Shown in pieces: positions 1-64,000 of a DNA stretch of 64,000 bases (positions are counted from its first letter, which is position 1; each line of letters starts with the position of its first letter). The position numbers were made by a program, and so were the translations under genes. The notes below the pieces were generated by a model, which saw only the letters and a program-made list of their open reading frames with translations, did not search any database and had not been told where the DNA came from. Source of the stretch: Candidatus Latescibacterota bacterium (lineage in GTDB: Bacteria; Latescibacterota; UBA2968; GCA-2709665); assembly GCA_965219995.1 (NCBI GenBank), contig CBDCOX010000002.1, forward strand, positions 864,001-928,000, in the 5' to 3' direction.

Positions 1-810
1 GAAGTGATGACGCGCGACACGATGCGGTCGATCCTGACGTTTCTCGCCTCGACGGATATTCCAGTCGTGGACATTACCGGCGGCGCGCCGGAGGTGAACC
101 CCGAATTCAGGTATCTGGTTCATCAGATCCGTGTGCTTGGACGGCACGTGATGGTCCGGTGCAATCTAACCGTGATTTTCGAACCCGGTCTCGAGGATCT
201 GCCTGACTTCTACCGCGAACATCAGGTGGAACTGGTATGCTCACTGCCCTGTTATCTTGAGGAAAACGTAGACCAACAGCGTGGAAAGGGCGTGTTTTAC
301 GATAGCATCGAGGCGCTGCGGCGCCTGAATGCGATCGGTTACGGACAGCCGGACTCGGGATTGACGCTTCACCTCGTATACAATCCGGTCGGGGCCTCCC
401 TTCCGCCGCCGCAGGCCGAACTGGAAGCGGACTATAAGAAGGTTCTTGCAGAGCGGTACGACATTTCGTTCAACCGACTCCTGACCATAACGAATATGCC
501 GATCAGCCGGTTCAACGACTATCTGAAGCGTCGGGGGGAGTACGAAGGCTACACGCAGACGTTATACGACCATTTCAACGCCCAGACGATTGATCGCCTG
601 ATGTGTCGTTTTCTCGTGAGCGTGGATTGGGAAGGCAATATCTACGACTGCGATTTCAACCAGATGCTGGACATGCATCTGTCCGGCCGGCCGAAAAAAC
701 TGTGGGAGGTGTCGCCGGGATGGCTGGTGAACAGGAGAATCCGGATCGCCGACCACTGTTTCGGCTGCACTGCCGGGGCCGGAAGCAGTTGCGGAGGTGA
801 ACTGGCCTGA
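1..810 (+). CDS. arsS: ArsS-like (arsenosugar biosynthesis) radical SAM protein, 5' end outside window
   Basis: VDITGGAPE, RCNLT, SLPCY, CDFNQM and C-terminal HCFGCTAGAGSSCGG (DUF3641-type tail). The frame is open from base 1, and the CxxxCxxC motif lies outside the window. Confidence 0.8.
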   Translation, partial: EVMTRDTMRSILTFLASTDIPVVDITGGAPEVNPEFRYLVHQIRVLGRHVMVRCNLTVIFEPGLEDLPDFYREHQVELVCSLPCYLEENVDQQRGKGVFYDSIEALRRLNAIGYGQPDSGLTLHLVYNPVGASLPPPQAELEADYKKVLAERYDISFNRLLTITNMPISRFNDYLKRRGEYEGYTQTLYDHFNAQTIDRLMCRFLVSVDWEGNIYDCDFNQMLDMHLSGRPKKLWEVSPGWLVNRRIRIADHCFGCTAGAGSSCGGELA

Positions 811-49330: not shown

Positions 49331-50578
49331 ATGTTAGAACCCGACGTCCGGCGGTACATGCGGGTCCGGCTTACGGACTGGGGCGACGCTGTGCGCATCG
49401 ATCTCAACCAACTCGGCGCGCGGCTGCCGGCGCAGGGTGCGCCCGGCGCAACATGGTCGGAAGCAACGGGGGAGTCGTTGCGGGACGAATGGGCCGAATC
49501 TCAGAACGAGGCGCTTTGCGACACGATGGCGGACGTCGCCGCCTGTTCCGGAGGGGGCTTCGATTCGTTCGCCGAGTGGACCGTGCTGCACAACAGGCGG
49601 TACGACGGCGCCCATATGCGCGAATTGCGGCGGGCGCGGTTCCGCCGGGGCTACCGGGCAGCGATCACGACGCTCGGCTGGGCGCATCCGGGAACTCCCC
49701 TTTCCACTTCCATTCAGGCCGTGGCTTACGTGCCGAAAACCGGTGCCGGTTTCAAACAGTCCGTGTGGCGGCCCGAGTCGCTATACGACACCGAATTCAT
49801 GGCGCTCGCGCCCGCCGTGGTGACGGATTTCGGCGGAGGCCGGCAGATCCATCTGTCGGGCGTTGTCGCGTGGGACGAGCGAATCAATCCGCTCTTCGAA
49901 GGCCAGCCGGAACGCCAGATTTCCCATGTATTCGACCTCATCCAGGACGTTTTCAGTGAAGGCGGCGGATCGCTGGGCGACGTTGTGCGGCTGCGTCCAT
50001 TCGCCCACTCTTCGGAGATCGCGCGGATCATCCGGGCGGAGGTCAGCCGCCGCTGGGCGGGGAGTCCGAAGCCCGTGGTGATGATGTCGGACAGCCGGAA
50101 ATTCGGCGATCCGCCCAGTCTGTACGCGGAAATACAGGTCATGGGCGTGACGTCGGACGGCCACGGCAGGGTTCGCCACCGCGAAGCGGAACTCCCCGTG
50201 GAGACGATCGACGAAGGTGCTACCCGCATCCGCTGCAGCCGGACGCGCGAGTGGGAAATGGTCCATGTGGGTGAACTTCGGGCGCGCCCGGACGCCAGTT
50301 GGATGCGGGAAGCCGAGCAGGTCACCGGTCAGATCAGTGCGGTCCTCGAAAGGATGTCCCTCACTCCCGACGACGTCTGTCTGACACTGGCCTATGTGAG
50401 TTCACCCGAAGCCGCCGCGGCCTTCCCGGAAACGGTGACCGGGGCGGTACCGGTTGAAACCGTGCACGTGCTGCCGTGTCCGGCAATGCCCGAATTGGAC
50501 GGCAGCTGCATCAAGGTGGAGATGACGGCTCGAAGACGTCTGGATCCGGCCTCCAGGTCGCAGGCCGGTCCCTCCTGA
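49331..50578 (+). CDS. Multi-domain Rid/YjgF-like protein
   Basis: IHLSGVV...QISHVF...GGSLGDVVRL...AEIQV, plus two more degenerate units ending SIQAVA and KVEMTA. Confidence 0.55.
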   Translation: MLEPDVRRYMRVRLTDWGDAVRIDLNQLGARLPAQGAPGATWSEATGESLRDEWAESQNEALCDTMADVAACSGGGFDSFAEWTVLHNRRYDGAHMRELRRARFRRGYRAAITTLGWAHPGTPLSTSIQAVAYVPKTGAGFKQSVWRPESLYDTEFMALAPAVVTDFGGGRQIHLSGVVAWDERINPLFEGQPERQISHVFDLIQDVFSEGGGSLGDVVRLRPFAHSSEIARIIRAEVSRRWAGSPKPVVMMSDSRKFGDPPSLYAEIQVMGVTSDGHGRVRHREAELPVETIDEGATRIRCSRTREWEMVHVGELRARPDASWMREAEQVTGQISAVLERMSLTPDDVCLTLAYVSSPEAAAAFPETVTGAVPVETVHVLPCPAMPELDGSCIKVEMTARRRLDPASRSQAGPS

Positions 50579-50694
50579 CGGGGTGGTCCGTGAAGGATCG
50601 CTCGGCGCTTTTTGCCCACGGGCCCACGCGGGAACGATCCGCACCGCAGAAATGTCCAATGCATAGAGCGCAGTTTTTCATGATGGGGCTGGAA

Positions 50695-51585
50695 ATGCGT
50701 ATATCGGCAACGGGATTGACAAAAGTCTATCCGAAGGGGACTGTACCCGCGCTGAACAACGTCGACCTGGAAATTGGACGGGGAACGTTCGGTCTGCTGG
50801 GCCCGAACGGCGCCGGAAAAACCACGCTGATCAAGGTTCTTTCAACGCAGATGGCGCCAACGGCCGGCCAAGTCAGAATTGGCGCCTGGGACCTGCAGCG
50901 AAACCGTTCCGAAGTGCGGCGGCGGCTGGGCTACCTTCCCCAGCACTTCGGAGCGTATCCGCAACTGACGGCGTGGGAATTTCTGGACTACATGGACCGG
51001 CTGGCAGCCGGGCGACGTCGGATCGGGCGGAGGGCGCGAGTGCGTCGTGCGCTCGAAAACGTGGGGCTTTACGACGCGCGGGACCGACGGACCGGCACTT
51101 TTTCCGGTGGAATGATGCGGCGGCTCGGGATTGCCCAGGCCATTGTCGGCGATCCGGAAATCCTGATTGTGGACGAGCCCACCGTGGGGCTCGATCCGGA
51201 AGAACGCATCCGTTTTCGAGGGATTCTCGCTCGACTGAGCCGGGACAGGACAATCCTGATTTCCACCCATATCGTCGGCGATGTTTCGAGCACCTGCGAC
51301 GACCTGGCGGTGCTGAATGAAGGGCGGATCGTCTACAGGGGGTCGCCCGATGCCCTCGTCGCTCGTGCGGATGACAAGACCTGGCGGGTACGGGCGGACG
51401 ACTCGGAGTTCGAGACGATATCCCGGCGATTTCTGGTTGTGACGGTCGCTGTGGACGGCGGGCGAATGGACCTCCGGTTCGTGGGCGACGGCCACCCGCC
51501 CGCCCACGCCGAACCGGTACCGCCGAACCTCGAAGACGCATACGTGTACTTTATGGGCCGGGAGAGTCAGGAAAGGGCGGCGTAG
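50695..51585 (+). CDS. ABC-2 type exporter ATP-binding protein
   Basis: [32 protein letters not shown]-terminal PNLEDAY. Confidence 0.93.
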   Translation: MRISATGLTKVYPKGTVPALNNVDLEIGRGTFGLLGPNGAGKTTLIKVLSTQMAPTAGQVRIGAWDLQRNRSEVRRRLGYLPQHFGAYPQLTAWEFLDYMDRLAAGRRRIGRRARVRRALENVGLYDARDRRTGTFSGGMMRRLGIAQAIVGDPEILIVDEPTVGLDPEERIRFRGILARLSRDRTILISTHIVGDVSSTCDDLAVLNEGRIVYRGSPDALVARADDKTWRVRADDSEFETISRRFLVVTVAVDGGRMDLRFVGDGHPPAHAEPVPPNLEDAYVYFMGRESQERAA

Positions 51586-51588
51586 GCC

Positions 51589-54500
51589 ATGGAGACGGTT
51601 TATACCGTATTGTCGGTCGCCAGATACGAGCGCAAGATGCTGATGCGGACGATCCGATTCCGTATCCTGGGTGGAATCGGCGTGCTCATTCCCGTTGCTC
51701 TGGGCGTCGGCCTGGCGATCGCGGAATCCAGGGGCATCGCATTCGAGTCTGTCAGCGGCATCGGCGCCTATATGCCCTTTTTTGTCTACAGTCTGCTGCA
51801 GACCGTCGTGATCGCGTTTATCGTCGGTGATTTCCGCGCCTCGGACGAGCGCGCCGGAATCTACGAAGTGGTTGCCGCCCGGCCGCTTTCTACAGCCGAA
51901 CTGGTCATGGGCAAATACCTCGGGGTCCTGGGTGCGCTGATTACGCTGAGCCTTGTCGTGCTGGTGCTCAGCCTGGCGGTGCAGGCGGCCAAGATCAGCG
52001 TTACCGGCGCGCCGTTTGCGATCCGACCCTATCTGACGTACCTGCTGCTGCTGAACCTCCCCGGGCTGGTCTATATGTCCGCTCTTACGTTTTTCCTCGG
52101 GGCGGTATTTCGCCGGCAGGCTGCGGTGACCGTGCTGACCATCGCTTACGTCCTGATCGTCCTGCTGTTTCTTGGAAGTCGATACGGCGGCATCTACGAT
52201 TTCGGCGCATTCTTCGCCCCGGTGTTCTACTCGGATATGCTCGGCCTTGGCGATATCCGGAAGGTGGTGGAGATCCGGGTCTTCTACACGTTTCTCGCCC
52301 TGTTTTTCTTCGGTTTGTCTATCGACCGGTATCCACGGCTTCCGCAGTCCCGGGCCTGGCGCAGGTTCGGTCGATGCCTGACCGCCGGCGGTCTCGTCGC
52401 CGCGGTGTGCCTGTACGCGTATATGGTAGGGCGGGACTCGTCAGACCTCGACTACCGGATGGCGCAGCTGGAAGTTCAGGAAGGAATCGCCGGGCAGCCA
52501 ACGTCGGCTGTTACGCATTACGCGCTCGACCTGGACCTCGCGAATGACCGTACGCCGCTGCAGGGCAGGGCGGTTCTCAGCGTTTCGAACCCTCATCCCG
52601 TAACGCTCGACACGCTCGTTTTCAGTCTCAACCCCGGACTGGAATTGCGTTCGGTGAATGCAGTTGAGGAAAAGGGCGCTGAAATCAGTTGGCAGCGCGA
52701 GTATTCTGTCGTGAGAATCGCCCGTCCGCTCCAGCCCGACAGTCTGGCGACGTTGGAGTTCGTATACGACGGCTCGATCGACCTCAGCGGATTCGATCTG
52801 AGGCGTCAACCGGAAGCAAGACGTTTGCAGAAGCGGCGAACGGGGCCGGGACGGAAGGGGGACCTGACCGCCTGGATCCGCCGGAATTCCGTATTCCTGC
52901 CGCCACGCAGCAGGTGGTACCCCTCGCCGGGCGTGGACTACGGTCATCAGGAAGGCCGACCCCAATCCTTCGCCACCGCAGATCTGGATATTGCGCTTCC
53001 CGAAGGACTGGAAGTCGTGACCCAGGGTGTGCCGGTGGGCCGGAAGAAAGAGGGCGGCCGCGAGGTTCATACATGGAAAGTGGAACGCCCCGTACCCGTT
53101 CTCTCGCTCAACGCGGGCGTGTACCATGTTTTTCAGGCCGAAGTCCACAATATCCAATGCGCCATATACGTGCATCCGGCCCACGCCAGGCAGGTTACCT
53201 TCTTCCACGACGCCAGGGACGACGCATTGAATACGCTGGGCGAGATCCTGGATAGCGTTGAACAGGAAACCGGCCTGCCCTATCCGTACCAGCGCCTGTC
53301 GGTTGTGGAGGTGCCATTCCAGGTACAGTGGTATTACGACGGATGGGAGGAAGCCGGCGGATTGGTGCAGCCCGGCGTGCTGATGCTTGAAGAGGACGTC
53401 CTGATGCGGCTGAATCTGCAACGTCGTCTGAAGTGGATGCAGCGGCGACAGCGACGTAACGACGACCCGGGCAGAATCAAGCGGGACCTGCTGGTCAGGA
53501 CGGTGCTGAACACGTTCCTCGCGCGGGAATCGACTCAGAGCGGCATCTACAGGAGTCCGGTTGCGCAACTCTGGTCGTTCAACCGGGGATTCGAAGGCGA
53601 ACACTATTCCCTGCTCAAACGCGGCATGCCAGTCTATATGCAGCAGAATCTCGGGACCACACTGCAACAGAGCTTCTACTCGAGGCGAGGACGATTTCGA
53701 GGCCGGTTCCGGCGGAACAGGGGGGCGCGCGGCGTTTCCTGGGATACCGTAACGGCCAGGATGCGGCAGCGTTCTTTCGCGGAACTTGACCCGACTGCCG
53801 ACGCGGAACTCTACCGGGCGGTCGTCGACGCCAAGGGCGCCTCCATGTTCGGGATGATGCAGGCCGTGGTGGGTGAAGACGCATTCAGAGACGTGGTCAG
53901 CGGATTCGAGGAGGCGAGCCGGCACGCGGGCGTCGACTTTGCGTCGTTTGAGCGCGCGGCTGTTGGCGATTCGTCGAAGCAGGCGGATCGGCCCGGCCTG
54001 AATCGACTCGTCCGGGACTGGCTTCACGGCACCCAGGTCCCGGGCTACACCCTGACAAGGGCAAAAGCATATAAGGTGGACGACGGATGGGGCATGATGA
54101 CGTATCAGGTCATCGTGCGTATCCGGAACGGCGAGCCGGGGCGCGGATTTGTCCAGATTCGAGCCATGGGAACCGAAGACGAGGCGGTAAAGGGCGTTGA
54201 GATCGAGGGCGGGCAGGAAGTTGAGGTGGGGCTGATCCTCTGGGAACGGCCTTCGAGGATAAGCGTCGAGCCGTTCTTTGCCCGCAACCGCCGGGTCCTG
54301 ATGGCGCCGTTGCGCATACCCGAGCAGCCGATGGATGGATCCGCCACGACCTATGTGAGGGAGGTCGCTCCGGACGAGACCGGATTGACCGAGATAATTG
54401 TGGACAACGATGACGAAGGCTTCGAAATGCCAGTCCGCCGGGTGCGGCGTTATCTCCGGCCGCAGTTGAAAGGCGACAACTGGCAGGAACGCCAGATGCC

Positions 54501-54951
54501 ATTCTCGTTCGGCAGGTACGAAAACAACTACAGGTGGAAGAAACCGGGCGATGGCGCGCAGCCGGCCGTCTGGACGGCCCGATTGCCGCATGGCGGGGAT
54601 TACGACGTCTACTATTATTTCCTTCATCCCAGGTTCTCAAGGCGCATGCGTATGGCGTCGGAATTCAGTCTGGCCGTCAGTTACGGCGGCGAGGTGGATA
54701 CGCTGGCGGTCGAATCGAACAACCTGAAGGCCGGCTGGAACGTCCTGGGACGATACCGGTTCGAGGGCGGAGAACTGGCCCGGGTCGAGCTGTCCGACCG
54801 CGCCAACGGCCGCCTCTACGCCGACGCGGTGCGCTGGCGATACGTGGATCCCGACCATCCGGAAGAGGTGTACGAAGAGGATCTGCCGTCCTGGAATTTC
54901 GGTCGCGGCGGCGGCCGGGGCGGCGGATCGTCGCGTGGGAGAAGCTGGTAA
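51589..54951 (+). CDS. ABC-2 permease fused to an M1-peptidase-like domain lacking HEXXH and a golvesin/Xly-CBD-like C-terminal domain
   Basis: About 7 TM segments with RPLS..ELVMGK; FSLNPGL, WYP, YPYQRLSVVEVP; C-terminal IIVDNDD...GDYDVY...GWNVLGRYRF...ADAVRW. Confidence 0.75.
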   Translation: METVYTVLSVARYERKMLMRTIRFRILGGIGVLIPVALGVGLAIAESRGIAFESVSGIGAYMPFFVYSLLQTVVIAFIVGDFRASDERAGIYEVVAARPLSTAELVMGKYLGVLGALITLSLVVLVLSLAVQAAKISVTGAPFAIRPYLTYLLLLNLPGLVYMSALTFFLGAVFRRQAAVTVLTIAYVLIVLLFLGSRYGGIYDFGAFFAPVFYSDMLGLGDIRKVVEIRVFYTFLALFFFGLSIDRYPRLPQSRAWRRFGRCLTAGGLVAAVCLYAYMVGRDSSDLDYRMAQLEVQEGIAGQPTSAVTHYALDLDLANDRTPLQGRAVLSVSNPHPVTLDTLVFSLNPGLELRSVNAVEEKGAEISWQREYSVVRIARPLQPDSLATLEFVYDGSIDLSGFDLRRQPEARRLQKRRTGPGRKGDLTAWIRRNSVFLPPRSRWYPSPGVDYGHQEGRPQSFATADLDIALPEGLEVVTQGVPVGRKKEGGREVHTWKVERPVPVLSLNAGVYHVFQAEVHNIQCAIYVHPAHARQVTFFHDARDDALNTLGEILDSVEQETGLPYPYQRLSVVEVPFQVQWYYDGWEEAGGLVQPGVLMLEEDVLMRLNLQRRLKWMQRRQRRNDDPGRIKRDLLVRTVLNTFLARESTQSGIYRSPVAQLWSFNRGFEGEHYSLLKRGMPVYMQQNLGTTLQQSFYSRRGRFRGRFRRNRGARGVSWDTVTARMRQRSFAELDPTADAELYRAVVDAKGASMFGMMQAVVGEDAFRDVVSGFEEASRHAGVDFASFERAAVGDSSKQADRPGLNRLVRDWLHGTQVPGYTLTRAKAYKVDDGWGMMTYQVIVRIRNGEPGRGFVQIRAMGTEDEAVKGVEIEGGQEVEVGLILWERPSRISVEPFFARNRRVLMAPLRIPEQPMDGSATTYVREVAPDETGLTEIIVDNDDEGFEMPVRRVRRYLRPQLKGDNWQERQMPFSFGRYENNYRWKKPGDGAQPAVWTARLPHGGDYDVYYYFLHPRFSRRMRMASEFSLAVSYGGEVDTLAVESNNLKAGWNVLGRYRFEGGELARVELSDRANGRLYADAVRWRYVDPDHPEEVYEEDLPSWNFGRGGGRGGGSSRGRSW

Positions 54952-54995
54952 ACCATCGGACAACGTCAGGCGATAACCCTTTTGCGAGGTGCAAT

Positions 54996-56072
54996 TTGAA
55001 CAGGCGATTCCTGAACGATTCCTGCATTGCATTCACGGCTGTTGTCGTTATGGCCGGCTGCGGCGGGCAAACCGAGCAGCGGTCCGTGGACCTGACCGTC
55101 CCCGTCACCGTCCAGGCCGTTCGCCTGGACACCATGGAGGCGACGGTGGCGGCCACCGGTACGCTCCGGCCCTCCCGGGAGGCCCGTATACAGACCGAGG
55201 TCGAGGGTATACTTCAATATGTCGCGCGGGGCGTCGGCGGACGACCGAACGAAGGAATGCGGGTCACCCGGAACCAGGAGATTGCCCGGCTTGTGAACAA
55301 GGAGCTGGTCGTGAACGCGCGCCTGGAATCCCGGCAACTCGCGCGCGCCACCGCGAAACGAACGCTGCGCGAGCAGGAGGTACTCGTTGAACGAAGACTG
55401 GGCACGGAGAGAGACCTGGACGAAGCCCGCCGCGCCCTCGCCGAGGCCGAATCCAATTACGAAGACGCGCTCGTTCAAATCGCCAAGACGACGATCCGGA
55501 CGCCAATCAGCGGTTTTCTGACGGGTTTGGCCGACATTACCGAGGGTACGCTGGTGGAAGCCCGAACGACCATCGCTACCGTGATGGATTACAGGCAGGT
55601 GCTCGTCGATCTGAAGATTCCGAACGCCTATATCGCATCCGTTTCACCCGGCCAGGTCGTGCGAGTGGAAAACTATGCATTGCCCGGAAGGCGGTTTCTG
55701 GGAACCATCAAGGTGGTTGATCCGGCCATCGATCCGACCACGCGTACCTTCCGGGTCGTTGGGGTCGTGAAGAATCCGAACCTGATGTTGCGACCGGGCA
55801 TGTTTGTGAAAGCCGAGATTGTCACGGAGTCACACGAAGACGCGGTGGTGATCCCTCGCCGCTTTGTCCTGACCCGCCAGAATCGCAAAGTGGTGTTCGT
55901 GGAAGAGGAGGGGAGGGCGCAGATGCGCGACGTGGAACTGGGGCTGGAGGGCCCAGAACAGGTCGAGATTCTGGAAGGGCTTGAAGCGGGCGAGCGCCTC
56001 ATTACCAGCAATTACGAGACGCTGCGCCCCCGTACCCGCGTGCGTGTTACCGGCGTGGGCTTGCAGCAATAA
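54996..56072 (+). CDS. RND periplasmic adaptor (membrane fusion protein), lipoprotein
   Basis: GAGGT RBS plus TTG start, MAGC lipobox, IRTPISG, DPTTRTF, LRPGMF, GLEAGE. Confidence 0.88.
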   Translation: MNRRFLNDSCIAFTAVVVMAGCGGQTEQRSVDLTVPVTVQAVRLDTMEATVAATGTLRPSREARIQTEVEGILQYVARGVGGRPNEGMRVTRNQEIARLVNKELVVNARLESRQLARATAKRTLREQEVLVERRLGTERDLDEARRALAEAESNYEDALVQIAKTTIRTPISGFLTGLADITEGTLVEARTTIATVMDYRQVLVDLKIPNAYIASVSPGQVVRVENYALPGRRFLGTIKVVDPAIDPTTRTFRVVGVVKNPNLMLRPGMFVKAEIVTESHEDAVVIPRRFVLTRQNRKVVFVEEEGRAQMRDVELGLEGPEQVEILEGLEAGERLITSNYETLRPRTRVRVTGVGLQQ

Positions 56073-56229: not shown

Positions 56230-56303
56230 GATCTTGATCCGTCACTTCTCGGGGACGTCAATTCGAGTATGTGCAAGCGGATCTCATTCAAAGGGCCGAT
56301 ACA

Positions 56304-59300
56304 ATGCCATTGCCCGAATTTTCGACGAAATACCCGGTAACGGTTGCCATGGCAACGCTGGCCGTCGCGCTCCTGGGCTGGATTTCGCTGGAGCGGCTGG
56401 AAGTGGACCTGTTGCCCGACCTGCGTTCTCCCGTGGTTACCGTGGACCTGCGATTTCCGGGCAAAACCCCCATGGAGATGGAGGAACGATATGCGCGTCG
56501 GCTGGAAGGGGATATCGGCACGGTACGCCACGTCAAACGCGTACATTCCGTGTCCCGTTCCGGGCAGGCCGTGGTGATCGCGGAATTCGAATGGGATGCG
56601 GACATGGATTTCGCCCTGCTCGACGTGCAGAAGAAGGTGGCGCGGTACGCTTCGGATCCCGATATCACGAGTCTGGACGTCACACAGGAAGACCCCCAGG
56701 CGTTGCCGGTGATGCGCCTGGCCGTCTCCGGAGCGGACTGGCAGGATCCGGATGAATTGCTGGGCAACGCGGAAACCGTCATCCGGCCCAAACTCGAGGG
56801 GTTGTCCGGGGTGGCTTCGGTGGAAATCGAGGGAGGCGCCGAGAAAGAAATCCGGATCACACTGGATTCCTATCTCCTTCAAGCATTCGGCGTCAACTCG
56901 GAGACGGTCGTCTCACGGATACGCGAGGCCAATTCGGACGTCTCCGGCGGAACGTTGAAAGACGGACAACGTTCCTATCTGGTAAAAGGCCTGGGACGTC
57001 TGACCGACTTGACAGACGTGAACAACCTGGTTGTGGGTGAGCGCGGGGGCGAATCTGCGACTGGCGAGAACGACGCCTCGACCCAGCGCGTGCCTGTCAC
57101 GGTGAGCGACGTGGGTACCGTCGGCCTGCTTTATAAGGAGAGGGAAACCATCGTGCGCCTCGACGGCTTCGAGTGCGTCGGACTCTCCGTTTACAAGGAA
57201 GCCGGCGCGAATACCTCGTCGGTGGTCAAGGGGGTTCTCCGGGAACTGGAAAGCCTCGAGGCCGATCTGACCGGCATCCGGTTTACGGTGGTGGAGAACC
57301 AGGCCCGTTTCGTCGAACGCGCGGTGAGTGAAGTGGAAGAGGCGGCCGTTCTTGGCGCGCTGCTTGCGGTGGGCGTGCTTCTGGCCGCGCTCCGGCAGTG
57401 GACCGCCACGCTGGTGATCGGACTTGCCATTCCGATTTCCGTTCTGGCCACGTTCACGCTGATGTATTTCCAGGGGCTGACGCTGAACATCATGACCCTC
57501 GGCGGCCTGGCGCTGGGCGCCGGCATGCTGGTGGACAACGCCATTGTCGTGATTGAGAACATCTACCGGCACCTCGAGAGGGGAGAAACGGCCGCAGAAG
57601 CCTCCGTCAGGGGCGCGAGTGAGGTCGGGGTCGCGATTCTGGCGTCCACGCTGACCACGGTGTCCGTATTTCTGCCCATTGTCTACCTTCACGGGTTGGC
57701 CGGTGAACTCTTCAGGGAACAGGCCTGGACGGTTGCGTTCTCACTGGTTTCGTCTCTCGCGGTGGCGATGACCGTGGTACCCATGCTGACCGCCCGGCTT
57801 TTCAGGCGGTATCCTCGACGATCCGCAGGGATCGCGGGAGCACGGTCCTTCAGGCGCTTTCTGGGCCGGTCGCTCAACCATAAGGGCCGCACGATGGCGG
57901 TGCTCGCGGCCTGCCTTCTGGCTGCCTTCCATATGGCCCGGTCCATCCATACTTCTTTTATTCCCACGGAAGACGAGGGTGTCCTTCACGTGGACCTCGC
58001 GCTGCCGGAGGGCACAAGACTTGAGTCGACAGACAGGGTGGCGAGGCGCGTTGCCGCCATTACGCAGGCGGTTGCCAGAGAGGAAGCGCGGCACATCTAC
58101 CTGCGCGTGGGAACCGATCCGAACCGGTTTACCGCCGTGGGAGAACCTACGGGCCCGAACAGAGCCGAGCTGACGGTCGTGCTGAGCCGACAGGCGGACC
58201 GTCGCGGCGTCTCCGAACTCACCACGGTTCTGGATGCAGCCCTCCTGGAAGTCCCGGACGTTAAGGTTAATTATCGGCTTCAAAAGGCTGCATTGGAAGG
58301 ACTTATACGAGGTGCAACGGCGCCGGTCCAGGTCGAGGTCAGCGGCGAGAACCTGGAACTGCTTCAGGAACTGACCGCAGATCTGAAACGGCGCATGGAC
58401 GCGTTGTCCACGGTATACAACGTGCGGAGCAGCTTCCAGGACGGTCAGCCCGAGGTGGACGTTGTGCTGCGGCCCGACATCACAGCGGCGTTCGGGCTGA
58501 CCTCGCAGAATCTCGTGCGAGAGCTGGAGCGCAGGCTCGGCGGCGAGGAAGCCGGAGAACTCTCCAAGGACCAGCGGGCGCGAACGATCCGGGTGGGTTT
58601 CGAGGACGTGGACCTTCGGGAGCTGCAACACGCGAGAATCGACGGTCCCGACGGGGCGATGCTCACGCTGGGAGATCTCGCCGACCTTCGGGTCGTACAG
58701 GGCCCCAGGGAAATCCTGCGGGACGGGCAGCGCAGGGTGGGGCGGGTGTCCGCGTTCCTCACCGACGGGGTGGTCTTGAGCCAGGCGGCAACGCAGATCA
58801 GGCAGGCGGTGAGACAGATGGCCATCCCGCACGGATACCAGGTGACCATAACCGGCGAGGAACGGGAGCGGGCCGAATCATTCGGCGGCCTGCAATTCGC
58901 CCTTCTGCTTTCGGTGGTGCTCGTCTATATGGTCATGGCTTCGCTCTTCGAGTCTCTGCTCCATCCGTTTACCGTCATGCTGACGGTGCCGCTGGCGGGC
59001 ATTGGCGTGGTGGTCGCATTCTGGAGCCTGGGAGAAGCGTTCGGCGTGATGGCGTTCATCGGCGCGATCATGCTGGGAGGTATCGCCGTCAACGACGCCA
59101 TCATTCTGGTGGACCACATCAACCAGTTGCGGCGCGAGACGGACGACGTGCGACAGGCCGTACTCCAGGCCGCGCAGGATCGGCTGCGTCCAATCCTGAT
59201 GACCAGCGCCACGACCATTCTGGCGCTGTTGCCGATGGCGGTGGGCGTCGGCGAGGGAGCGCGCCTCCGGGCCCCGATGGCGGTGGCCGTTATCGGCGGT

Positions 59301-59387
59301 CTGGTCACATCCACATTGATGACCCTTGTGGTGATTCCCGTCGTTTACGAACTGATCGAAGGGCTCAGAAGGAGGAGGGCGGCGTGA
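56304..59387 (+). CDS. RND efflux permease (AcrB/AcrD/AcrF family)
   Basis: YPV..LPDL, AIPIS, GMLVDNAIVVIENI, ASTLTT, FES, GIAVNDAI, RLRPILMT. Confidence 0.93.
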   Translation: MPLPEFSTKYPVTVAMATLAVALLGWISLERLEVDLLPDLRSPVVTVDLRFPGKTPMEMEERYARRLEGDIGTVRHVKRVHSVSRSGQAVVIAEFEWDADMDFALLDVQKKVARYASDPDITSLDVTQEDPQALPVMRLAVSGADWQDPDELLGNAETVIRPKLEGLSGVASVEIEGGAEKEIRITLDSYLLQAFGVNSETVVSRIREANSDVSGGTLKDGQRSYLVKGLGRLTDLTDVNNLVVGERGGESATGENDASTQRVPVTVSDVGTVGLLYKERETIVRLDGFECVGLSVYKEAGANTSSVVKGVLRELESLEADLTGIRFTVVENQARFVERAVSEVEEAAVLGALLAVGVLLAALRQWTATLVIGLAIPISVLATFTLMYFQGLTLNIMTLGGLALGAGMLVDNAIVVIENIYRHLERGETAAEASVRGASEVGVAILASTLTTVSVFLPIVYLHGLAGELFREQAWTVAFSLVSSLAVAMTVVPMLTARLFRRYPRRSAGIAGARSFRRFLGRSLNHKGRTMAVLAACLLAAFHMARSIHTSFIPTEDEGVLHVDLALPEGTRLESTDRVARRVAAITQAVAREEARHIYLRVGTDPNRFTAVGEPTGPNRAELTVVLSRQADRRGVSELTTVLDAALLEVPDVKVNYRLQKAALEGLIRGATAPVQVEVSGENLELLQELTADLKRRMDALSTVYNVRSSFQDGQPEVDVVLRPDITAAFGLTSQNLVRELERRLGGEEAGELSKDQRARTIRVGFEDVDLRELQHARIDGPDGAMLTLGDLADLRVVQGPREILRDGQRRVGRVSAFLTDGVVLSQAATQIRQAVRQMAIPHGYQVTITGEERERAESFGGLQFALLLSVVLVYMVMASLFESLLHPFTVMLTVPLAGIGVVVAFWSLGEAFGVMAFIGAIMLGGIAVNDAIILVDHINQLRRETDDVRQAVLQAAQDRLRPILMTSATTILALLPMAVGVGEGARLRAPMAVAVIGGLVTSTLMTLVVIPVVYELIEGLRRRRAA

Positions 59388-62300
59388 TTCTCCCCGATCT
59401 TGCGGTCCGGCGCCCTGTAACGACGTCGATGTTCTTCGCCGCATTCGCCATATTGGGAATCGTGTCGTGGACTCGGCTTCCGGTACAGCTCTTTCCGGAG
59501 CTGATCTTTCCGGAGGTGTTCGTCACGCTGTCGCTGCAGGGGGCCTCTCCTGAACAGGTGGAACGAGATCTTCTGATTCCCGTTGAAGGGGAGATCGGCA
59601 AGCTGGACGGCGTCCAGGAGATGGAGTCGTTCGCGATGGCCAACAGGGGGGGTATTCGTATATCCTACGCGCCCGACGTGGATATGAAATTCGCCCTTCT
59701 TCAACTGCAGAGCAACCTGAACAGATTGCAGCCGACGCTGCCCGAACGTACTCAGTCCGACGTCAGGAGGTTCGATTCGACGGATCTCAGCAGCAGCATT
59801 ATGGAGCTTCACGTGCTCGCCGACTGGGACCTGAACCCGTTGCGGGAGTTCACGGAGGAGAAAATCCGGCCCAAGCTGGAGTCTGTCGACGGTGTCGTCA
59901 ATGTGTCCGTATTGGGCGGACGGCGCAGCGCCGTGGAAATCGTCCTGGATCCGTTCCTGCTGGAGGCGCATGGCCTTTCGACGGGACAGGTTCGGGCACG
60001 CCTGAACAGCTATAACCGGCGGCGTGAGTACCTGGGGCGTGTATACGAAGGGAATCGGGCCTATTCGGTGAGCATTCAGGGGCAGTTTACGGACCTGCGT
60101 CAGATTCGCGATCTCGTCCTGAACGCGGACGGCACGCTCAGGCTGGGCGACGTTTCCCGGGTGGGATTCGGACTCCAGGATCAGGCCGATCGTCACAGAG
60201 TCAATGGAAGACCGTCGGTGGGCGTCCGGATCCAGAAGGACGACGAAGCAAATCTGATCGAGGTTGCCGCGGCGGTCGAAGCCGCCATCGGCCGTCTGAA
60301 TCGGGACTTCGCGAGCGAGGGTGTGGAACTGGGCGTGAGTTCCTCACAGGCGGATCTGATGACCGGAGCGCTTTCCACCCTGAAGCAGGCGGCCATTGCC
60401 GGCGCCGTGCTCGGACTGATCGTGCTCTTTCTGTTTCTTCGGAACCTTCGCTTCGTCTCGGTCCTCCTGCTTGCCATTCCGATTTCTCTCCTGATGACCT
60501 TCAATCTGATGTACCTCGGCGGACTGTCCGTCAACGTGCTGTCTCTGTGCGGTCTCGCCCTGGCGATGGGCATGCTTGCTGACAACGGCATCGTGGTGAT
60601 GGAGAACATCTTCAAACACTACGAGCGTGGCAAGTCGCCCGCCGACGCGGCACGGGACGGGGCGGCCGAGGTCGGGCGGGCCGTGGTTGCGGCAACCGCA
60701 ACCACCGTAACCGCTTTCCTGCCGGTTCTGTTCATCGAGAGCGACGCGCGGGACCTGCTGCGGGAACTCGCGTTGTCCATGGCGTTTCCGCTGCTGGCGT
60801 CACTGCTGGTGGCCCTGACGCTGGTTCCGGCCCTCGCCGTACGGGCGCTGAGCCGCGGGGTCCGGCAGCCGCCCGACGTTCGCGGGTTGCTCGAGCGGTA
60901 TACGCTGCTGCTGAAGACTGCGCTGCGTCACCGCGCATCGGTGGTCCTGTCCGCAGGGGTGGCGCTCGCGCTGACACTCGTGCTGGCGTTCTTCTACCTG
61001 CTGCAACAGCAGGTGCGCAGGGAGGAGACACGTTTTACGGTCTACGTGAACCTTCCGGAAGGGGCCACGCTGGACGCGACGGACGAGGTCGTGAAACAGG
61101 TGGAAGCGTCCGTACGGGATGTGCCCGGTCTGGACCGGTTTACGACGTCGGTCCGTGAGGCGGAAGCCGACGTGAACGTATTGCTTGACAGACGTTCTGA
61201 CCGGCCAGGCGGCATCTCGCTGGATGAAATCAAAGAGCAACTCGACGACAAACTGCAGAATGTACAGGGAGGTGTTGTCGGATACGAACCCAGGCCCCGT
61301 GCGGGGAGGGGCGGCCGCGGGCAGGGGATCGGTCAACGTCGGAGACGCAGTTCAGGTGGATTCGATCTGACCGGGGCCACGCCGAACGAGCAGGTTGTGG
61401 TTCGAGGGTACGACTTTACGATACTGACGATGATTGCCAATGACCTGGTTTACCGCCTCGAAGAACTGGAGGAGGTGGATGCCAACAGTGTGCGCGCCGA
61501 CGCCGAACGGAGTTCGCCCGAGGTGCAGGTGATACCCGATGCGGCCGCCCTGTTCGACCGGCGACTTGGCGCACAGGAAGTGCTCGCCGCCATGGGTGAC
61601 ACCCGTTGGGACGGGTTTCGCACAACGGTCCCGTTCCTGCTGCCCGATGCAACCGAGGTACCCATCGAAGTGCGTACGATCGAAGAGGAGGAACGCGACC
61701 GGTACGGGCTGGCTGAGTTCAGGCGTTCACGCATTCTGAACCGGGACGGGCATTTCGTACCGCTTTCCGAAGTGGCGAGGGTCCGGACGGATGAGGGACG
61801 GAGCAGCCTGTTGCGGACCGACCAGACCCGTCGGATTGTGGTTTCCTACCGGTTTCCTTCGGAGATTCTGGATTCCCAGCCGCGTTTGGATCTTGCGAGA
61901 CGGGTCGTGCGAACAACGCTGCAGGACATGGTTCTGCCGGAGGGGTATTCGATCGAAATCATCGAGGCGCACGAGGAGATGATCTACTATTGGATGATGG
62001 CGATCGCCGCGGTCCTCATCTATATGATTCTGGCGTCGTTGTTTGAATCTTTCGCCTCTCCGGTCATCATTCTGTGTACGCTGCCGCCCGCGGCCATCGG
62101 CTCCTGCTGGGCGCTGATGATGTCGGGCACGGGCCTCAGCCAGCAGGAGGGTCCCATGGCGCTTCTGGGCTTTATCGTCCTGCTGGGCATTGCGGTAAAC
62201 AACGGAATCATCCTGATCGACGCGGTCGGCGTGCTCAGGACCCGATTCGGCTTTCGCCGGGAACGCGCGGTGCTGACCGCGGCGCGGTCGCGTGTTCGAC

Positions 62301-64000
62301 CCATCCTGATGACAACGGCCACGACGCTTCTGGGCGTTCTTCCACTGGCGCTCGAATACGGCGGCGATTTTGAGATCTGGCCACCTTTCGCAATTACCGT
62401 TCTGGGCGGGCTTTCGGTATCCATGGTCTCCACGCTGATCCTGATTCCGGTGGTATACATGGGGCTGGATCAGATCCGCGCCTGGCTTGCCGACATGGGG
62501 GTTATTGCCGTCACGCTGTCGCTGCTGGCGACTGCCGCGGCCGGCTACGGAGTTTACGTCAGGTATGAAAGCGTTTTCTGGGCTACTCTGTCGATTTTAC
62601 CCATCTGGTGTGCATTTCTTACGGCGGTATGGATCGTCCTGAGGGTACATCGCGCTCGAGTCGCAGCCCGGCGCGCATCCGGCGCCGTTCATTCCATTCA
62701 GCTGAGAAATCTTACCAAGGTTTACGGCGCGCCGGGGCGCTTTGTACGGGAGTGGGCACGCAATGAGCGCCGGCGAGGGCGGTTGATGGAAACCGGGCCG
62801 GGTCCACATGACCGCAAGGCGGTTCGTGACGCGCTCATCTGGAAGCTGCCATTGCTCGCGCTGTTATCGGTCTTCACGACCTATTTCGAGGACGAAATCT
62901 GGATCTATCTACACGGGCTGGCGCTGGCATTCATGCTTTGGCACGTGGGTCGATGCGTCGGAGAACTGAGGGAAACGCAATTTCCGGCGCCGATCGCCCG
63001 CATTGGCAATCTGCTGCTCAAAACCGTGCTGCCATTGACGTTTGTCGCTTATGTGCACTGGCGGCTGAACCTGCTCTCGGTCACGCTTGCCTCGTTCGGG
63101 CTATGGGCGGCCTATCGGCTGGTGCGGCGGCTCGCCGACAGGGTGCGTTCGGGGGAGATCAATCCCGACGGACTGTCCGGACGTTTCGCGCGGCCGCGCC
63201 GGTGGTGCTATCGGTTGGCCTCGGCCATGCCGATCGTCGGCGTTCCCCGGCCGGAATTTCGGGCGCTGGCGGGCGTCAATCTGGAAATCGGCAGGGGGAT
63301 GTTCGGACTTCTGGGTCCCAATGGCGCCGGAAAGACCACACTGATGCGCATTCTCTGCCGGGTACTCGAACCCAGCTACGGCTCCATTCTGATCGACGGT
63401 CGAAACATCCTGAATCGGGAGTCGATTCACGGTCTGATTGGCTACCTGCCGCAGCACTTCGGCAACTACGGACACCTTTCCGCATACGAGTATCTGGAGT
63501 ACCGGGCGCTTCTGGAGGGCTACAAGGACCGGAAAACCCGCGACGCCCGGGTGATCGAATCTCTGGAACAGGTCAATCTGATCGAACGGAAAGACGATCC
63601 CGTCGGCTCCTTTTCAGGCGGAATGAAGCAGCGCCTCGGCATCGCTCAGACCCTCCTGCACACCCCGCGGATCGTGGTGGTGGACGAGCCCACGGCGGGG
63701 CTCGATCCCCTGGAGCGCATCCGGTTCCGAAACCTGCTTGCCAGGTTGAGCCAGGATCGCATTGTCATTTTCTCCACGCACATCGTGGAAGATATCTCCG
63801 GTAGCTGCAATCGCCTGGCAGTGCTGGACCAGGGGTGTCTTCTGTATACGGGAACGCCGGTGGAAATGAGGAATCTGGCGAAAGGACGGGTGTGGGACGC
63901 GGTGGTTTCGGAGGGGCGCTTTTCCGGGATGGAGGACGAACTGAGGCTCATATCACATCAGCGAACCCCCGCTGGAGTCCGGATGCGGTTCCTCTCGGAA
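59384..64000 (+). CDS. RND permease - extra TM - ABC ATPase fusion protein (at least 1539 aa, runs off the window)
   Basis: GTG overlapping the upstream TGA, with GGAGG RBS. RND motifs GMLADNGIVVMEN, GIAVNNGI and RVRPILMT. The 62462-63340 junction was translated by hand with no stop. Then [24 protein letters not shown] and STH. Confidence 0.9.
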   Translation, partial: MILPDLAVRRPVTTSMFFAAFAILGIVSWTRLPVQLFPELIFPEVFVTLSLQGASPEQVERDLLIPVEGEIGKLDGVQEMESFAMANRGGIRISYAPDVDMKFALLQLQSNLNRLQPTLPERTQSDVRRFDSTDLSSSIMELHVLADWDLNPLREFTEEKIRPKLESVDGVVNVSVLGGRRSAVEIVLDPFLLEAHGLSTGQVRARLNSYNRRREYLGRVYEGNRAYSVSIQGQFTDLRQIRDLVLNADGTLRLGDVSRVGFGLQDQADRHRVNGRPSVGVRIQKDDEANLIEVAAAVEAAIGRLNRDFASEGVELGVSSSQADLMTGALSTLKQAAIAGAVLGLIVLFLFLRNLRFVSVLLLAIPISLLMTFNLMYLGGLSVNVLSLCGLALAMGMLADNGIVVMENIFKHYERGKSPADAARDGAAEVGRAVVAATATTVTAFLPVLFIESDARDLLRELALSMAFPLLASLLVALTLVPALAVRALSRGVRQPPDVRGLLERYTLLLKTALRHRASVVLSAGVALALTLVLAFFYLLQQQVRREETRFTVYVNLPEGATLDATDEVVKQVEASVRDVPGLDRFTTSVREAEADVNVLLDRRSDRPGGISLDEIKEQLDDKLQNVQGGVVGYEPRPRAGRGGRGQGIGQRRRRSSGGFDLTGATPNEQVVVRGYDFTILTMIANDLVYRLEELEEVDANSVRADAERSSPEVQVIPDAAALFDRRLGAQEVLAAMGDTRWDGFRTTVPFLLPDATEVPIEVRTIEEEERDRYGLAEFRRSRILNRDGHFVPLSEVARVRTDEGRSSLLRTDQTRRIVVSYRFPSEILDSQPRLDLARRVVRTTLQDMVLPEGYSIEIIEAHEEMIYYWMMAIAAVLIYMILASLFESFASPVIILCTLPPAAIGSCWALMMSGTGLSQQEGPMALLGFIVLLGIAVNNGIILIDAVGVLRTRFGFRRERAVLTAARSRVRPILMTTATTLLGVLPLALEYGGDFEIWPPFAITVLGGLSVSMVSTLILIPVVYMGLDQIRAWLADMGVIAVTLSLLATAAAGYGVYVRYESVFWATLSILPIWCAFLTAVWIVLRVHRARVAARRASGAVHSIQLRNLTKVYGAPGRFVREWARNERRRGRLMETGPGPHDRKAVRDALIWKLPLLALLSVFTTYFEDEIWIYLHGLALAFMLWHVGRCVGELRETQFPAPIARIGNLLLKTVLPLTFVAYVHWRLNLLSVTLASFGLWAAYRLVRRLADRVRSGEINPDGLSGRFARPRRWCYRLASAMPIVGVPRPEFRALAGVNLEIGRGMFGLLGPNGAGKTTLMRILCRVLEPSYGSILIDGRNILNRESIHGLIGYLPQHFGNYGHLSAYEYLEYRALLEGYKDRKTRDARVIESLEQVNLIERKDDPVGSFSGGMKQRLGIAQTLLHTPRIVVVDEPTAGLDPLERIRFRNLLARLSQDRIVIFSTHIVEDISGSCNRLAVLDQGCLLYTGTPVEMRNLAKGRVWDAVVSEGRFSGMEDELRLISHQRTPAGVRMRFLSE

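Follow-up and report, generated by a model that had tools for sequence, protein, structure and literature searches.

An RND permease fused to an ABC ATPase domain that carries a predicted membrane insert in its first hairpin, in a Candidatus Latescibacterota genome

We analyzed a stretch of 64,000 nucleotides from a Candidatus Latescibacterota bacterium (GenBank assembly GCA_965219995.1, contig CBDCOX010000002.1, positions 864,001 to 928,000 of the forward strand), referred to here as the window. Its right end is occupied by an open reading frame (ORF) on the plus strand that starts with GTG at 59384, ends 96 bases beyond the window (continuation L004) and encodes 1570 amino acids (aa). A full-length AcrB-type permease of the resistance-nodulation-division (RND) class and an ATP-binding cassette (ABC) ATPase domain lie on this one chain (Pfam ACR_tran, aa 5-1027; ABC_tran, aa 1297-1438). 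The initial annotation of this DNA had described an ABC domain split by an insert of about 180 residues, but missed that the first strand of the domain and its core are both in the C-terminal third of a single RND-containing ORF. Because the two Pfam domains occur in one chain, what had been seen as a split ATPase is the C-terminal part of an RND-ABC fusion protein. The parts of the fusion are as follows.

59384..62473, plus strand: RND (AcrB-type) permease domain, aa 1-1030 (Pfam ACR_tran, aa 5-1027)
62501..62674, plus strand: two predicted linker membrane helices, TM13 and TM14, aa 1040-1097 (AlphaFold2 helices, hydropathy)
62696..62728, plus strand: strand 1 and A-loop, IQLRNLTKVYG, aa 1105-1115 (model strand, conservation)
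62738..62791, plus strand: basic helix after the A-loop, with a conserved REW motif, aa 1119-1136 (AlphaFold2 helix 89-106)
62813..63148, plus strand: predicted four-helix membrane insert, TM15-TM18, aa 1144-1255 (AlphaFold2, hydropathy, charge)
63188..63226, plus strand: return helix toward the ATPase core, aa 1269-1281 (AlphaFold2 helix 239-251)
63257..64000 and 96 bases more past the window, plus strand: ATPase core from strand 2 on, aa 1292-1570 (Pfam ABC_tran)
63314-63337, plus strand: Walker A motif GPNGAGKT, within the ATPase core

The chain thus has 18 predicted membrane helices (12 in the RND domain, two in the linker and four in the insert), with all cytoplasmic elements on one side. 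On the opposite strand, only ORFs of at most 124 aa overlap the fusion, and we saw no reason to call them genes. The junction from the RND domain through the linker and strand 1 into the insert is spanned without insertions or deletions by contigs of independent sponge and marine metagenome runs (e.g., X8 record 30, covering 61260-63259, and X5 records covering 62425-62908 and 62977-63498); the fusion frame is not an assembly artefact. Near-identical DNA for positions 62400-63700 was present in sponge, coral and marine metagenome runs of several studies (share of sampled words 0.23-0.95), which points to a sponge-associated organism; contigs from three of these runs were aligned to the window. 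Public records of close relatives are labelled Latescibacterota or Gemmatimonadota.

Translation of positions 62696-63998 gives IQLRNLTKVYGAPGRF, 179 residues, and then the rest of the ABC ATPase. The 179 residues run from the A-loop Tyr to the next conserved element (ALAGVNLEI, with ALAGV starting at aa 1294, position 63263), so the size first given for the insert between strand 1 and the next strand was borne out. A stand-alone ABC ATPase encoded upstream in the window provides the uninterrupted counterpart: its sequence, RISATGLTKVYPKGTVPALNNVDLEIGRG, has 6 residues between KVY and AL, the spacing that had been read for it initially. The cores of the fused and stand-alone ATPases are 45% identical over 278 aa (BLASTP), the alignment starting exactly at PKGTVPAL and PRPEFRAL, respectively. 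Likewise, stand-alone ATPases from a library of 1.84 billion proteins align only from residue ~259-268 of the 540-aa tail used as query, at their own residues 13-27, and their first strand is therefore without a contiguous counterpart in the query.

Homologs were collected by a word-indexed search with the last 540 aa of the fusion. Among the 120 matches listed, most are about 1550-1620 aa long, contain both Pfam families and show 39-92% identity over the 540 aa; among the sources named are Latescibacterota, Gemmatimonadota, Acidobacteriota and candidate division KSB1. The query and 107 matches of 1450-1700 aa were aligned, and conservation is reported for these 108 sequences throughout. The insert was found in all of them at the same point, with a length of 163-259 aa (median 179) that varies mostly in one loop, between insert helices 2 and 3. 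Around the insertion point, K1112 is present in 108 sequences, Y1114 in 107, W1124 in 106, L1110 in 103 and G1115 in 91. The aromatic residue of the A-loop at the end of strand 1 is thus Tyr in all but one sequence, which has Phe; its packing in the sheet is known from the model only (see below). In a survey of 151 sampled genomes of the phylum, 83 had a match at E <= 1e-60, a level reached by the stand-alone paralog as well. Among the matches listed, those of at least 77 of the 151 genomes begin at or before query residue 176 and include at least the last two insert helices, and those of at least 73 begin at or before residue 73 and cover the whole insert.

These data bear on the suspicion that the fusion is an assembly or frameshift product, or that IQLRNLTKVY is a chance or vestigial segment outside the ATPase fold. 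Two short proteins, P0154 (526 aa) and P0224 (539 aa), start with Met and a membrane helix followed by strand 1, the insert and the ATPase, and so look like separate proteins; they are possibly free-standing modules with two membrane helices, strand 1, four membrane helices and the ATPase, or else gene calls that follow a frameshift. In addition, the fusion is split into two frames in one locus (L032). Against this stand more than 100 full-length homologs from many sources, insert-covering matches in at least 77 of the 151 genomes, a junction free of indels in independent contigs, the invariant or nearly invariant Lys and Tyr, and the canonical place of strand 1 in the structure model. An artefact or relic, which we hold to be extremely improbable, is effectively refuted.

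The structure of the 540-aa tail (P0004; full-protein numbering is P0004 numbering plus 1030) was predicted with AlphaFold2 from the 108-row alignment, with a mean predicted local distance difference test (pLDDT) score of 92.6 and a predicted template modelling (pTM) score of 0.84. In P0004 numbering, the model begins with two linker helices (10-31 and 34-67, pLDDT 93-98), followed by a strand (74-84), a helix (89-106) and the four helices of the insert (114-137, 141-166, 172-198 and 201-225); a helix (239-251), a second strand (262-273) and the ATPase core follow the insert. Most blocks within the insert have pLDDT of 94-98; lower values are 79, in the first turn, and 85, in the loop that follows helix 2. 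In this confident model the two halves fold into one ATPase domain, as the initial annotation had supposed.

The position of strand 1 was read from the ranges of structural alignments (VIA-align). Solved ATPase domains align nearly over their whole length, from their own residue 1-2, placed at model residue 71-74. For 1vpl, 234 of 238 residues align (chain 2..239, model 73..533) with Z 28.6 and a root-mean-square deviation (rmsd) of 1.5 A, and for LptB (4p31_B), 225 of 230 residues align with an rmsd of 1.9 A. Since solved domains align from their first residues over near full length, model strand 74-84, which contains IQLRNLTKVY, occupies the canonical strand-1 position. When residues 1-262 were folded without the core, mean pLDDT was 91.3 and the membrane helices kept 96-98, and residues 74-84 became coil with pLDDT 66-72, a behaviour that fits a strand needing the ATPase sheet. 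By the model, then, strand 1 with its adenine-stacking Tyr is shown to be still part of the ATPase fold. Neither of the two observations named in the initial annotation as counter-evidence, a segment that stays out of the ATPase sheet in models or lacks conservation in homologs, was made.

The insert contains four long hydrophobic helices of 24-27 residues each (aa 1144-1167, 1171-1196, 1202-1228 and 1231-1255), in agreement with the roughly four hydrophobic segments noticed at the outset. In this protein, the best 17-residue Kyte-Doolittle mean of each helix is 1.3-1.7, with family medians of 1.5-2.0; for linker helices TM13 and TM14 the corresponding values are 1.71 and 2.19. The loops joining helix 1 to 2 and helix 3 to 4, which presumably face outward, have 2-3 residues and no Lys or Arg, and next to the ATPase the flanks contain 7 and 6 Lys/Arg. 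The basic helix at aa 1119-1136 alone has 7 Lys/Arg and a hydropathy of -1.6, and conserved motifs GR..(R)R..Y and P.IG surround the return helix. Pfam searches with the extra membrane helices gave nothing better than E = 0.22 (PhoR). Compared on its own with 48,161 chains, the fold of the membrane part reached a Z of at most 9.1; the matches were generic helical hairpins, at a level too low to be meaningful for helical bundles. A protein-atlas feature search with the insert gave no usable match. That the extra helices might be a diverged ABC-2 permease was considered and rejected, as the family profile matched the profile of the permease encoded downstream with an hhalign probability of 0.1.

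The ATPase itself scores 98.4 bits against Pfam PF00005 ABC_tran (cut-off 25; aa 1297-1438). None of the aligned sequences departs from Walker A, the Q-loop Gln, the SGGM signature, DEPT..GLD or the H-loop His, and conservation is complete or at least 90% across Walker A, Q-loop, signature, Walker B with the catalytic Glu, D-loop and H-loop (STH); because of these residues, the fused ATPase looks catalytically competent. Its best NCBIfam models are DrrA, GldA, RbbA and NodI, all under their cut-offs; the best of them, DrrA (TIGR01188), reaches 167.7 bits and not its curated cut-off of 312.45. NCBIfam ABC matches begin at profile positions 5-17 and leave strand 1 out; the DrrA match starts at position 5, strand 1 being lost to the insert. 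Judged from these models and from its structural relatives TM_1403 and NosF, the fused ATPase is of the ABC-2 partner type.

The RND domain is complete (Pfam PF00873 ACR_tran, 605.4 bits versus a cut-off of 28, profile positions 3-1019 of 1021). MdtB is its best solved relative by sequence, and NCBIfam model RND_permease_2 (NF033617) gives 522 bits, with its cut-off of 1250 not reached. Proton coupling in AcrB uses charged residues in TM4, TM10 and TM11. In all 108 aligned fusions, TM4 has the Asp followed by Asn, TM11 has the Arg, and the place of the TM10 Lys, as aligned to MdtB, is Asn. The same Asp-Asn/Asn-Asn pattern was present in at least four stand-alone RND paralogs of the genome (L102, L105, L106 and L110/L114), and nothing therefore marks the fused RND as proton-uncoupled; the argument that it lost its proton relay and hence is driven by ATP was rejected. 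The periplasmic part of the fused RND also has a low-complexity loop rich in Gly and Arg (PRPRAGRGGRGQGIGQRRRRSSGG, 61265-61350, fusion aa ~628-655). This loop is not in the upstream RND paralog by pairwise alignment, and the family consensus has a Gly run at this place.

The fusion gene closes a series of genes on the same strand of the window.

50476..51585, plus strand: stand-alone ABC ATPase paralog, hairpin between strands 1 and 2 uninterrupted (Pfam ABC_tran, 111 bits)
51589..54951, plus strand: ABC-2-type membrane protein whose large outer domain is M1-peptidase-like and Golvesin_C (Pfam)
54534..56072, plus strand: periplasmic adaptor (MFP/HlyD; Pfam HlyD_D23; TIGR01730 RND_mfp, 190 bits versus a cut-off of 94.9)
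56271..59387, plus strand: partner RND permease gene (Pfam ACR_tran, 747 bits; 34% identical to the fused RND by BLASTP)

The GTG start of the fusion overlaps the stop codon of the upstream RND gene, and its own stop overlaps the GTG start of a downstream ABC-2-like permease (GTGCTGA). As far as sequence can, these overlapping codons show that the fusion gene is translationally coupled to both neighbours. The downstream permease is a predicted six-helix protein of 240 aa with weak Pfam ABC2_membrane matches, under the cut-off. The protein encoded at 51589-54951 has 1120 aa, about seven hydrophobic segments in aa 26-281 and a C-terminal Golvesin_C domain (57 bits versus a cut-off of 31.6), with ABC2_membrane_3 and Peptidase_M1 under their cut-offs and no match among NCBIfam models; distant loci keep it upstream as well. 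As listed, the adaptor ORF would begin ~418 bases before the preceding gene stops. Distant adaptors match only aa ~150-510 and have nothing that corresponds to its first ~150 residues, a part that is detached in close relatives; translation probably begins near 54980. Just past the cluster, a convergent gene on the minus strand (L004:5860-7212) encodes a diadenylate cyclase of the CdaA type, with a DAC domain and an N-terminal membrane domain, which has the same place in 14 of 14 close relatives.

Gene order in the cluster was kept in 14 of 14 loci from close genomes. We also examined 34 distant metagenome loci (L021-L054), in most of which the fusion tail is 37-50% identical to that of the window (55-68% in the short pieces L050 and L051). 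The small ABC-2 permease lies directly downstream of the fusion in 32 of these 34 loci, the misses being L037 and the frame-broken L054. The partner RND is upstream in all 19 intact distant loci with upstream sequence, the adaptor precedes it in 16 of 16 loci, and the M1-type permease occurs farther upstream in 13. In two further loci, L080 and L093, the series is complete from the ABC ATPase up to where the fusion begins and includes an outer-membrane factor (Pfam OEP, 148 bits), which in distant loci lies between the M1-type permease and the adaptor (e.g., L080:14510-16024). Such conservation of the cluster suggests that its products form one machine.

RND pumps are trimers, whereas ABC ATPases act as dimers. 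One alternative reading is a single asymmetric ABC-2 transporter, in which the fused ATPase and the stand-alone ATPase (50476-51585) pair, the two different permeases form the membrane pair, and one RND protomer tethers the whole. The cluster does contain the two ATPases together with the two permeases in close and distant lineages, many genomes of the phylum survey have a paralog match on the contig of the fusion, about 11-13 kb away, the ATPase cores share the 45% identity given above, and the mismatch between trimer and dimer would ease. However, both ATPases have fully canonical motifs and no degenerate site. The separate clade of stand-alone ATPases in a quick tree of the cores (40 of 41 in one clade, support 98) is neutral on such pairing. 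We consider this arrangement unlikely, if worth keeping in mind.

Complex prediction was applied to the 540-aa tail and the downstream ABC-2 permease. The median score was 0.58 (runs of 0.58, 0.58 and 0.61), the best of three controls scored 0.00, contact agreement was at least 96% and pLDDT of the partner was at least 72, a result classed as weak support. The mark used was reached by 116 of 157 solved complexes and by 2 of 215 mismatches; scores of at most 0.60 were given to 18 of the 157 solved complexes and to both of the passing mismatches, and at this level a prediction is more often wrong than right unless the pair is likely beforehand.

Taking the architecture, the cluster and the type of the ATPase together, we favor, as probable rather than assured, a reading in which the 1570-aa protein is a hybrid subunit that hard-wires an ABC-2 exporter module to a tripartite RND pump, its ATPase energizing the downstream permease. 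In the model, the hairpin between strands 1 and 2 of this subunit is expanded into the basic helix, the four-helix membrane bundle and the return helix. We infer the function of the subunit as follows. Because the insert is at the same hairpin as the gate helix of Wzt (described below), it may be read as a membrane-embedded enlargement of that element, fixing the ATPase at the membrane next to the permease and to the RND domain, at a site from which nucleotide-dependent motion is known to reach the membrane. Linker and insert, with six extra membrane helices between them, would hold the ABC module against the RND membrane domain and could pass the ATP-driven movement of the hairpin into the membrane. 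Export would then involve two steps carried out as one machine: an ATP-driven step, in which the ABC-2 module moves a substrate from the cytoplasm or the inner leaflet to the periplasm, and a proton-driven step by the RND, adaptor and outer-membrane part.

The initial annotation had proposed that the insert could anchor the ATPase domain or transmit conformational change. Anchoring is plausible, but incomplete as an explanation, as the domain is already covalently tethered to the 12-helix RND through two membrane helices. Transmission of conformational change draws on a single parallel, the movement of the strand 1-strand 2 connection in WzmWzt (PMC6379404), and may be proposed by analogy with it.

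Several observations weigh against the favored reading. The complex prediction gives it weak support, and resemblance to solved ABC transporters may be enough for an ATPase-permease pair to pass. The cluster also conserves another ABC ATPase and another ABC-2 permease, and the true set of partners could differ. No outer-membrane factor gene was found in the cluster of this lineage: the genome has 14 OEP domain matches in about seven genes, none of which (0 of 14) is inside the window. Since no relative of the insert was detectable in the searches described above, its proposed role is read from position. The mismatch between an RND trimer and an ABC dimer also weighs against it. Finally, metatranscriptome contigs cover 15 of 30 bins in one run, but they are 90-99% alike, come from a relative and may represent DNA carry-over, and were rejected as evidence of expression for these reasons.

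RND-ABC fusions also occur in a shorter form of 1389-1458 aa (P0170, P0175, P0176, P0186, P0192, P0212, P0225, P0270 and L055:2394-6674). Similar to the long type, these have an RND followed by an ABC-2-type ATPase in one chain, with strand 1 set apart from strand 2; unlike the long type, the gap consists of ~25-60 mostly polar residues, and both the four-helix bundle and the linker helices are absent. One of them, L055, has Pfam ACR_tran and ABC_tran and lies between an M1-type ABC-2 permease and an outer-membrane factor, with no small permease. In the tree of ATPase cores, 27 of 28 long-type sequences group together, weakly, and the short type falls into three unresolved groups, so that no order of events can be claimed. 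The existence of shorter fusions without the insert or, in L055, without the small permease indicates that fusion to an RND is a common theme.

It also gives some weight to another explanation, in which the linkers and the insert let the ATPase work directly on the membrane domain of the RND, powering, priming or gating the pump. In addition to the short fusions, of which at least one (L055) lacks a small ABC-2 permease downstream, this explanation is consistent with the covalent joining of the ATPase to the last membrane helix of the RND through membrane helices. Yet the long-type fusion is followed by the small ABC-2 permease, with overlapping start and stop, in 32 of 34 distant loci, and the ATPase is of the type that partners ABC-2 permeases. 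The Asp-Asn/Asn-Asn pattern, being common to stand-alone RND paralogs, gives no sign of lost proton coupling, and even L055 has an ABC-2/M1 permease immediately upstream as a possible partner. ATP assistance or gating of the RND appears doubtful to us.

Returning to the hybrid exporter-pump subunit that we favor, a more elaborate version may be considered. Two tandem RND paralogs, one of which is fused, invite a trimer of two plus one, with MdtB2C as a precedent, and such a trimer would supply exactly two ATPase domains. In this hybrid-energy machine, two fusion protomers and one plain RND protomer would bring together two ATPase domains as one ABC dimer, whose closure would be relayed via insert and linkers into the RND membrane domain and the ABC-2 permease, combining ATP hydrolysis and proton flow in one envelope-spanning cycle. 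We offer this version as a speculation that is rather unlikely to hold in full.

The fusion as such is already predicted in databases, where automated annotation calls it, for example, 'multidrug efflux pump subunit AcrB/ABC-type multidrug transport system ATPase subunit'. In the available parts of the full-text literature searched, including the tripartite-pump review PMC8277102, neither an RND-ABC fusion nor membrane helices inside an ABC ATPase domain were described; subscription journals were outside the scope of this search. Its components (RND permease, ABC-2 ATPase and insertion at the gate-helix site) are thus of known kinds, and their combination is undescribed in the literature searched.

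RND pumps, which are proton-driven and trimeric, and ABC exporters, which are ATP-driven and dimeric, are treated as separate energy classes, and the fusion joins both in one polypeptide. Roughly half of the genomes sampled from the phylum contain it; it also occurs in other phyla, and its design is conserved across several uncultured bacterial phyla. If the model is correct, the fold of the ABC ATPase tolerates a four-helix membrane domain within its first hairpin, at the site of Wzt-type gate helices. The protein is a natural test case for how movement in the A-loop region reaches the membrane and for how three-fold and two-fold machines combine. Inner-membrane exporters and RND pumps cooperate in efflux; if the proposed two-step export is true, this cooperation would be hard-wired rather than kinetic.

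Among known systems, the tandem RND arrangement has a close parallel in MdtABC and MuxABC, in which one adaptor gene is likewise followed by two tandem RND paralogs (34% identical in the window). MdtC and MdtB/MuxB are the best equivalog models, far under cut-off. The tandem pair was kept in all informative loci. A stoichiometry of MdtB2C applies to the MdtBC pump. The second RND of the present cluster differs from these systems in having six extra membrane helices and an ABC ATPase.

ATPases of the DrrA/GldA/NosF type resemble the fused ATPase in having a core, a C-terminal domain and all catalytic motifs, and the stand-alone paralog of the window, at 45% identity, is a nearby example. TM_1403 and NosF are among the top structural (Foldseek) relatives; TM_1403 (4yer_A) matches the model with Z 30.1 and an rmsd of 3.7 A over 268 of 285 residues. 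In contrast to the fusion, ATPases of this type are soluble proteins of ~290-310 aa in which the hairpin turn has about 6 residues.

The closest parallel to the insertion itself is the gate helix of Wzt. According to the WzmWzt paper (PMC6379404), this helix belongs to the link between strands 1 and 2 and is turned toward the membrane surface on the cytosolic side; the link lies at the membrane interface and shifts by ~8 A when ATP binds, and gate helices are also present in teichoic-acid ABC transporters. Wzt and the fusion are alike in having an extra element directly behind the A-loop Tyr, where strand 1 connects to strand 2 (74-84 and 262-273 in the model), and both are ATPases of ABC-2/type V exporters. 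By the definition of Wzt/TagH-type gate helices in that paper, the insertion between strands is present in the fusion and the single short surface helix is not: Wzt has one short amphipathic helix, whereas the fusion has six helices, four predicted to span the membrane and two flanking, in a connection of 163-259 aa. Wzt also has no RND fusion. The likeness between the two is one of position, and it places the membrane bundle of the fusion at the same hairpin that in Wzt carries the gate helix.

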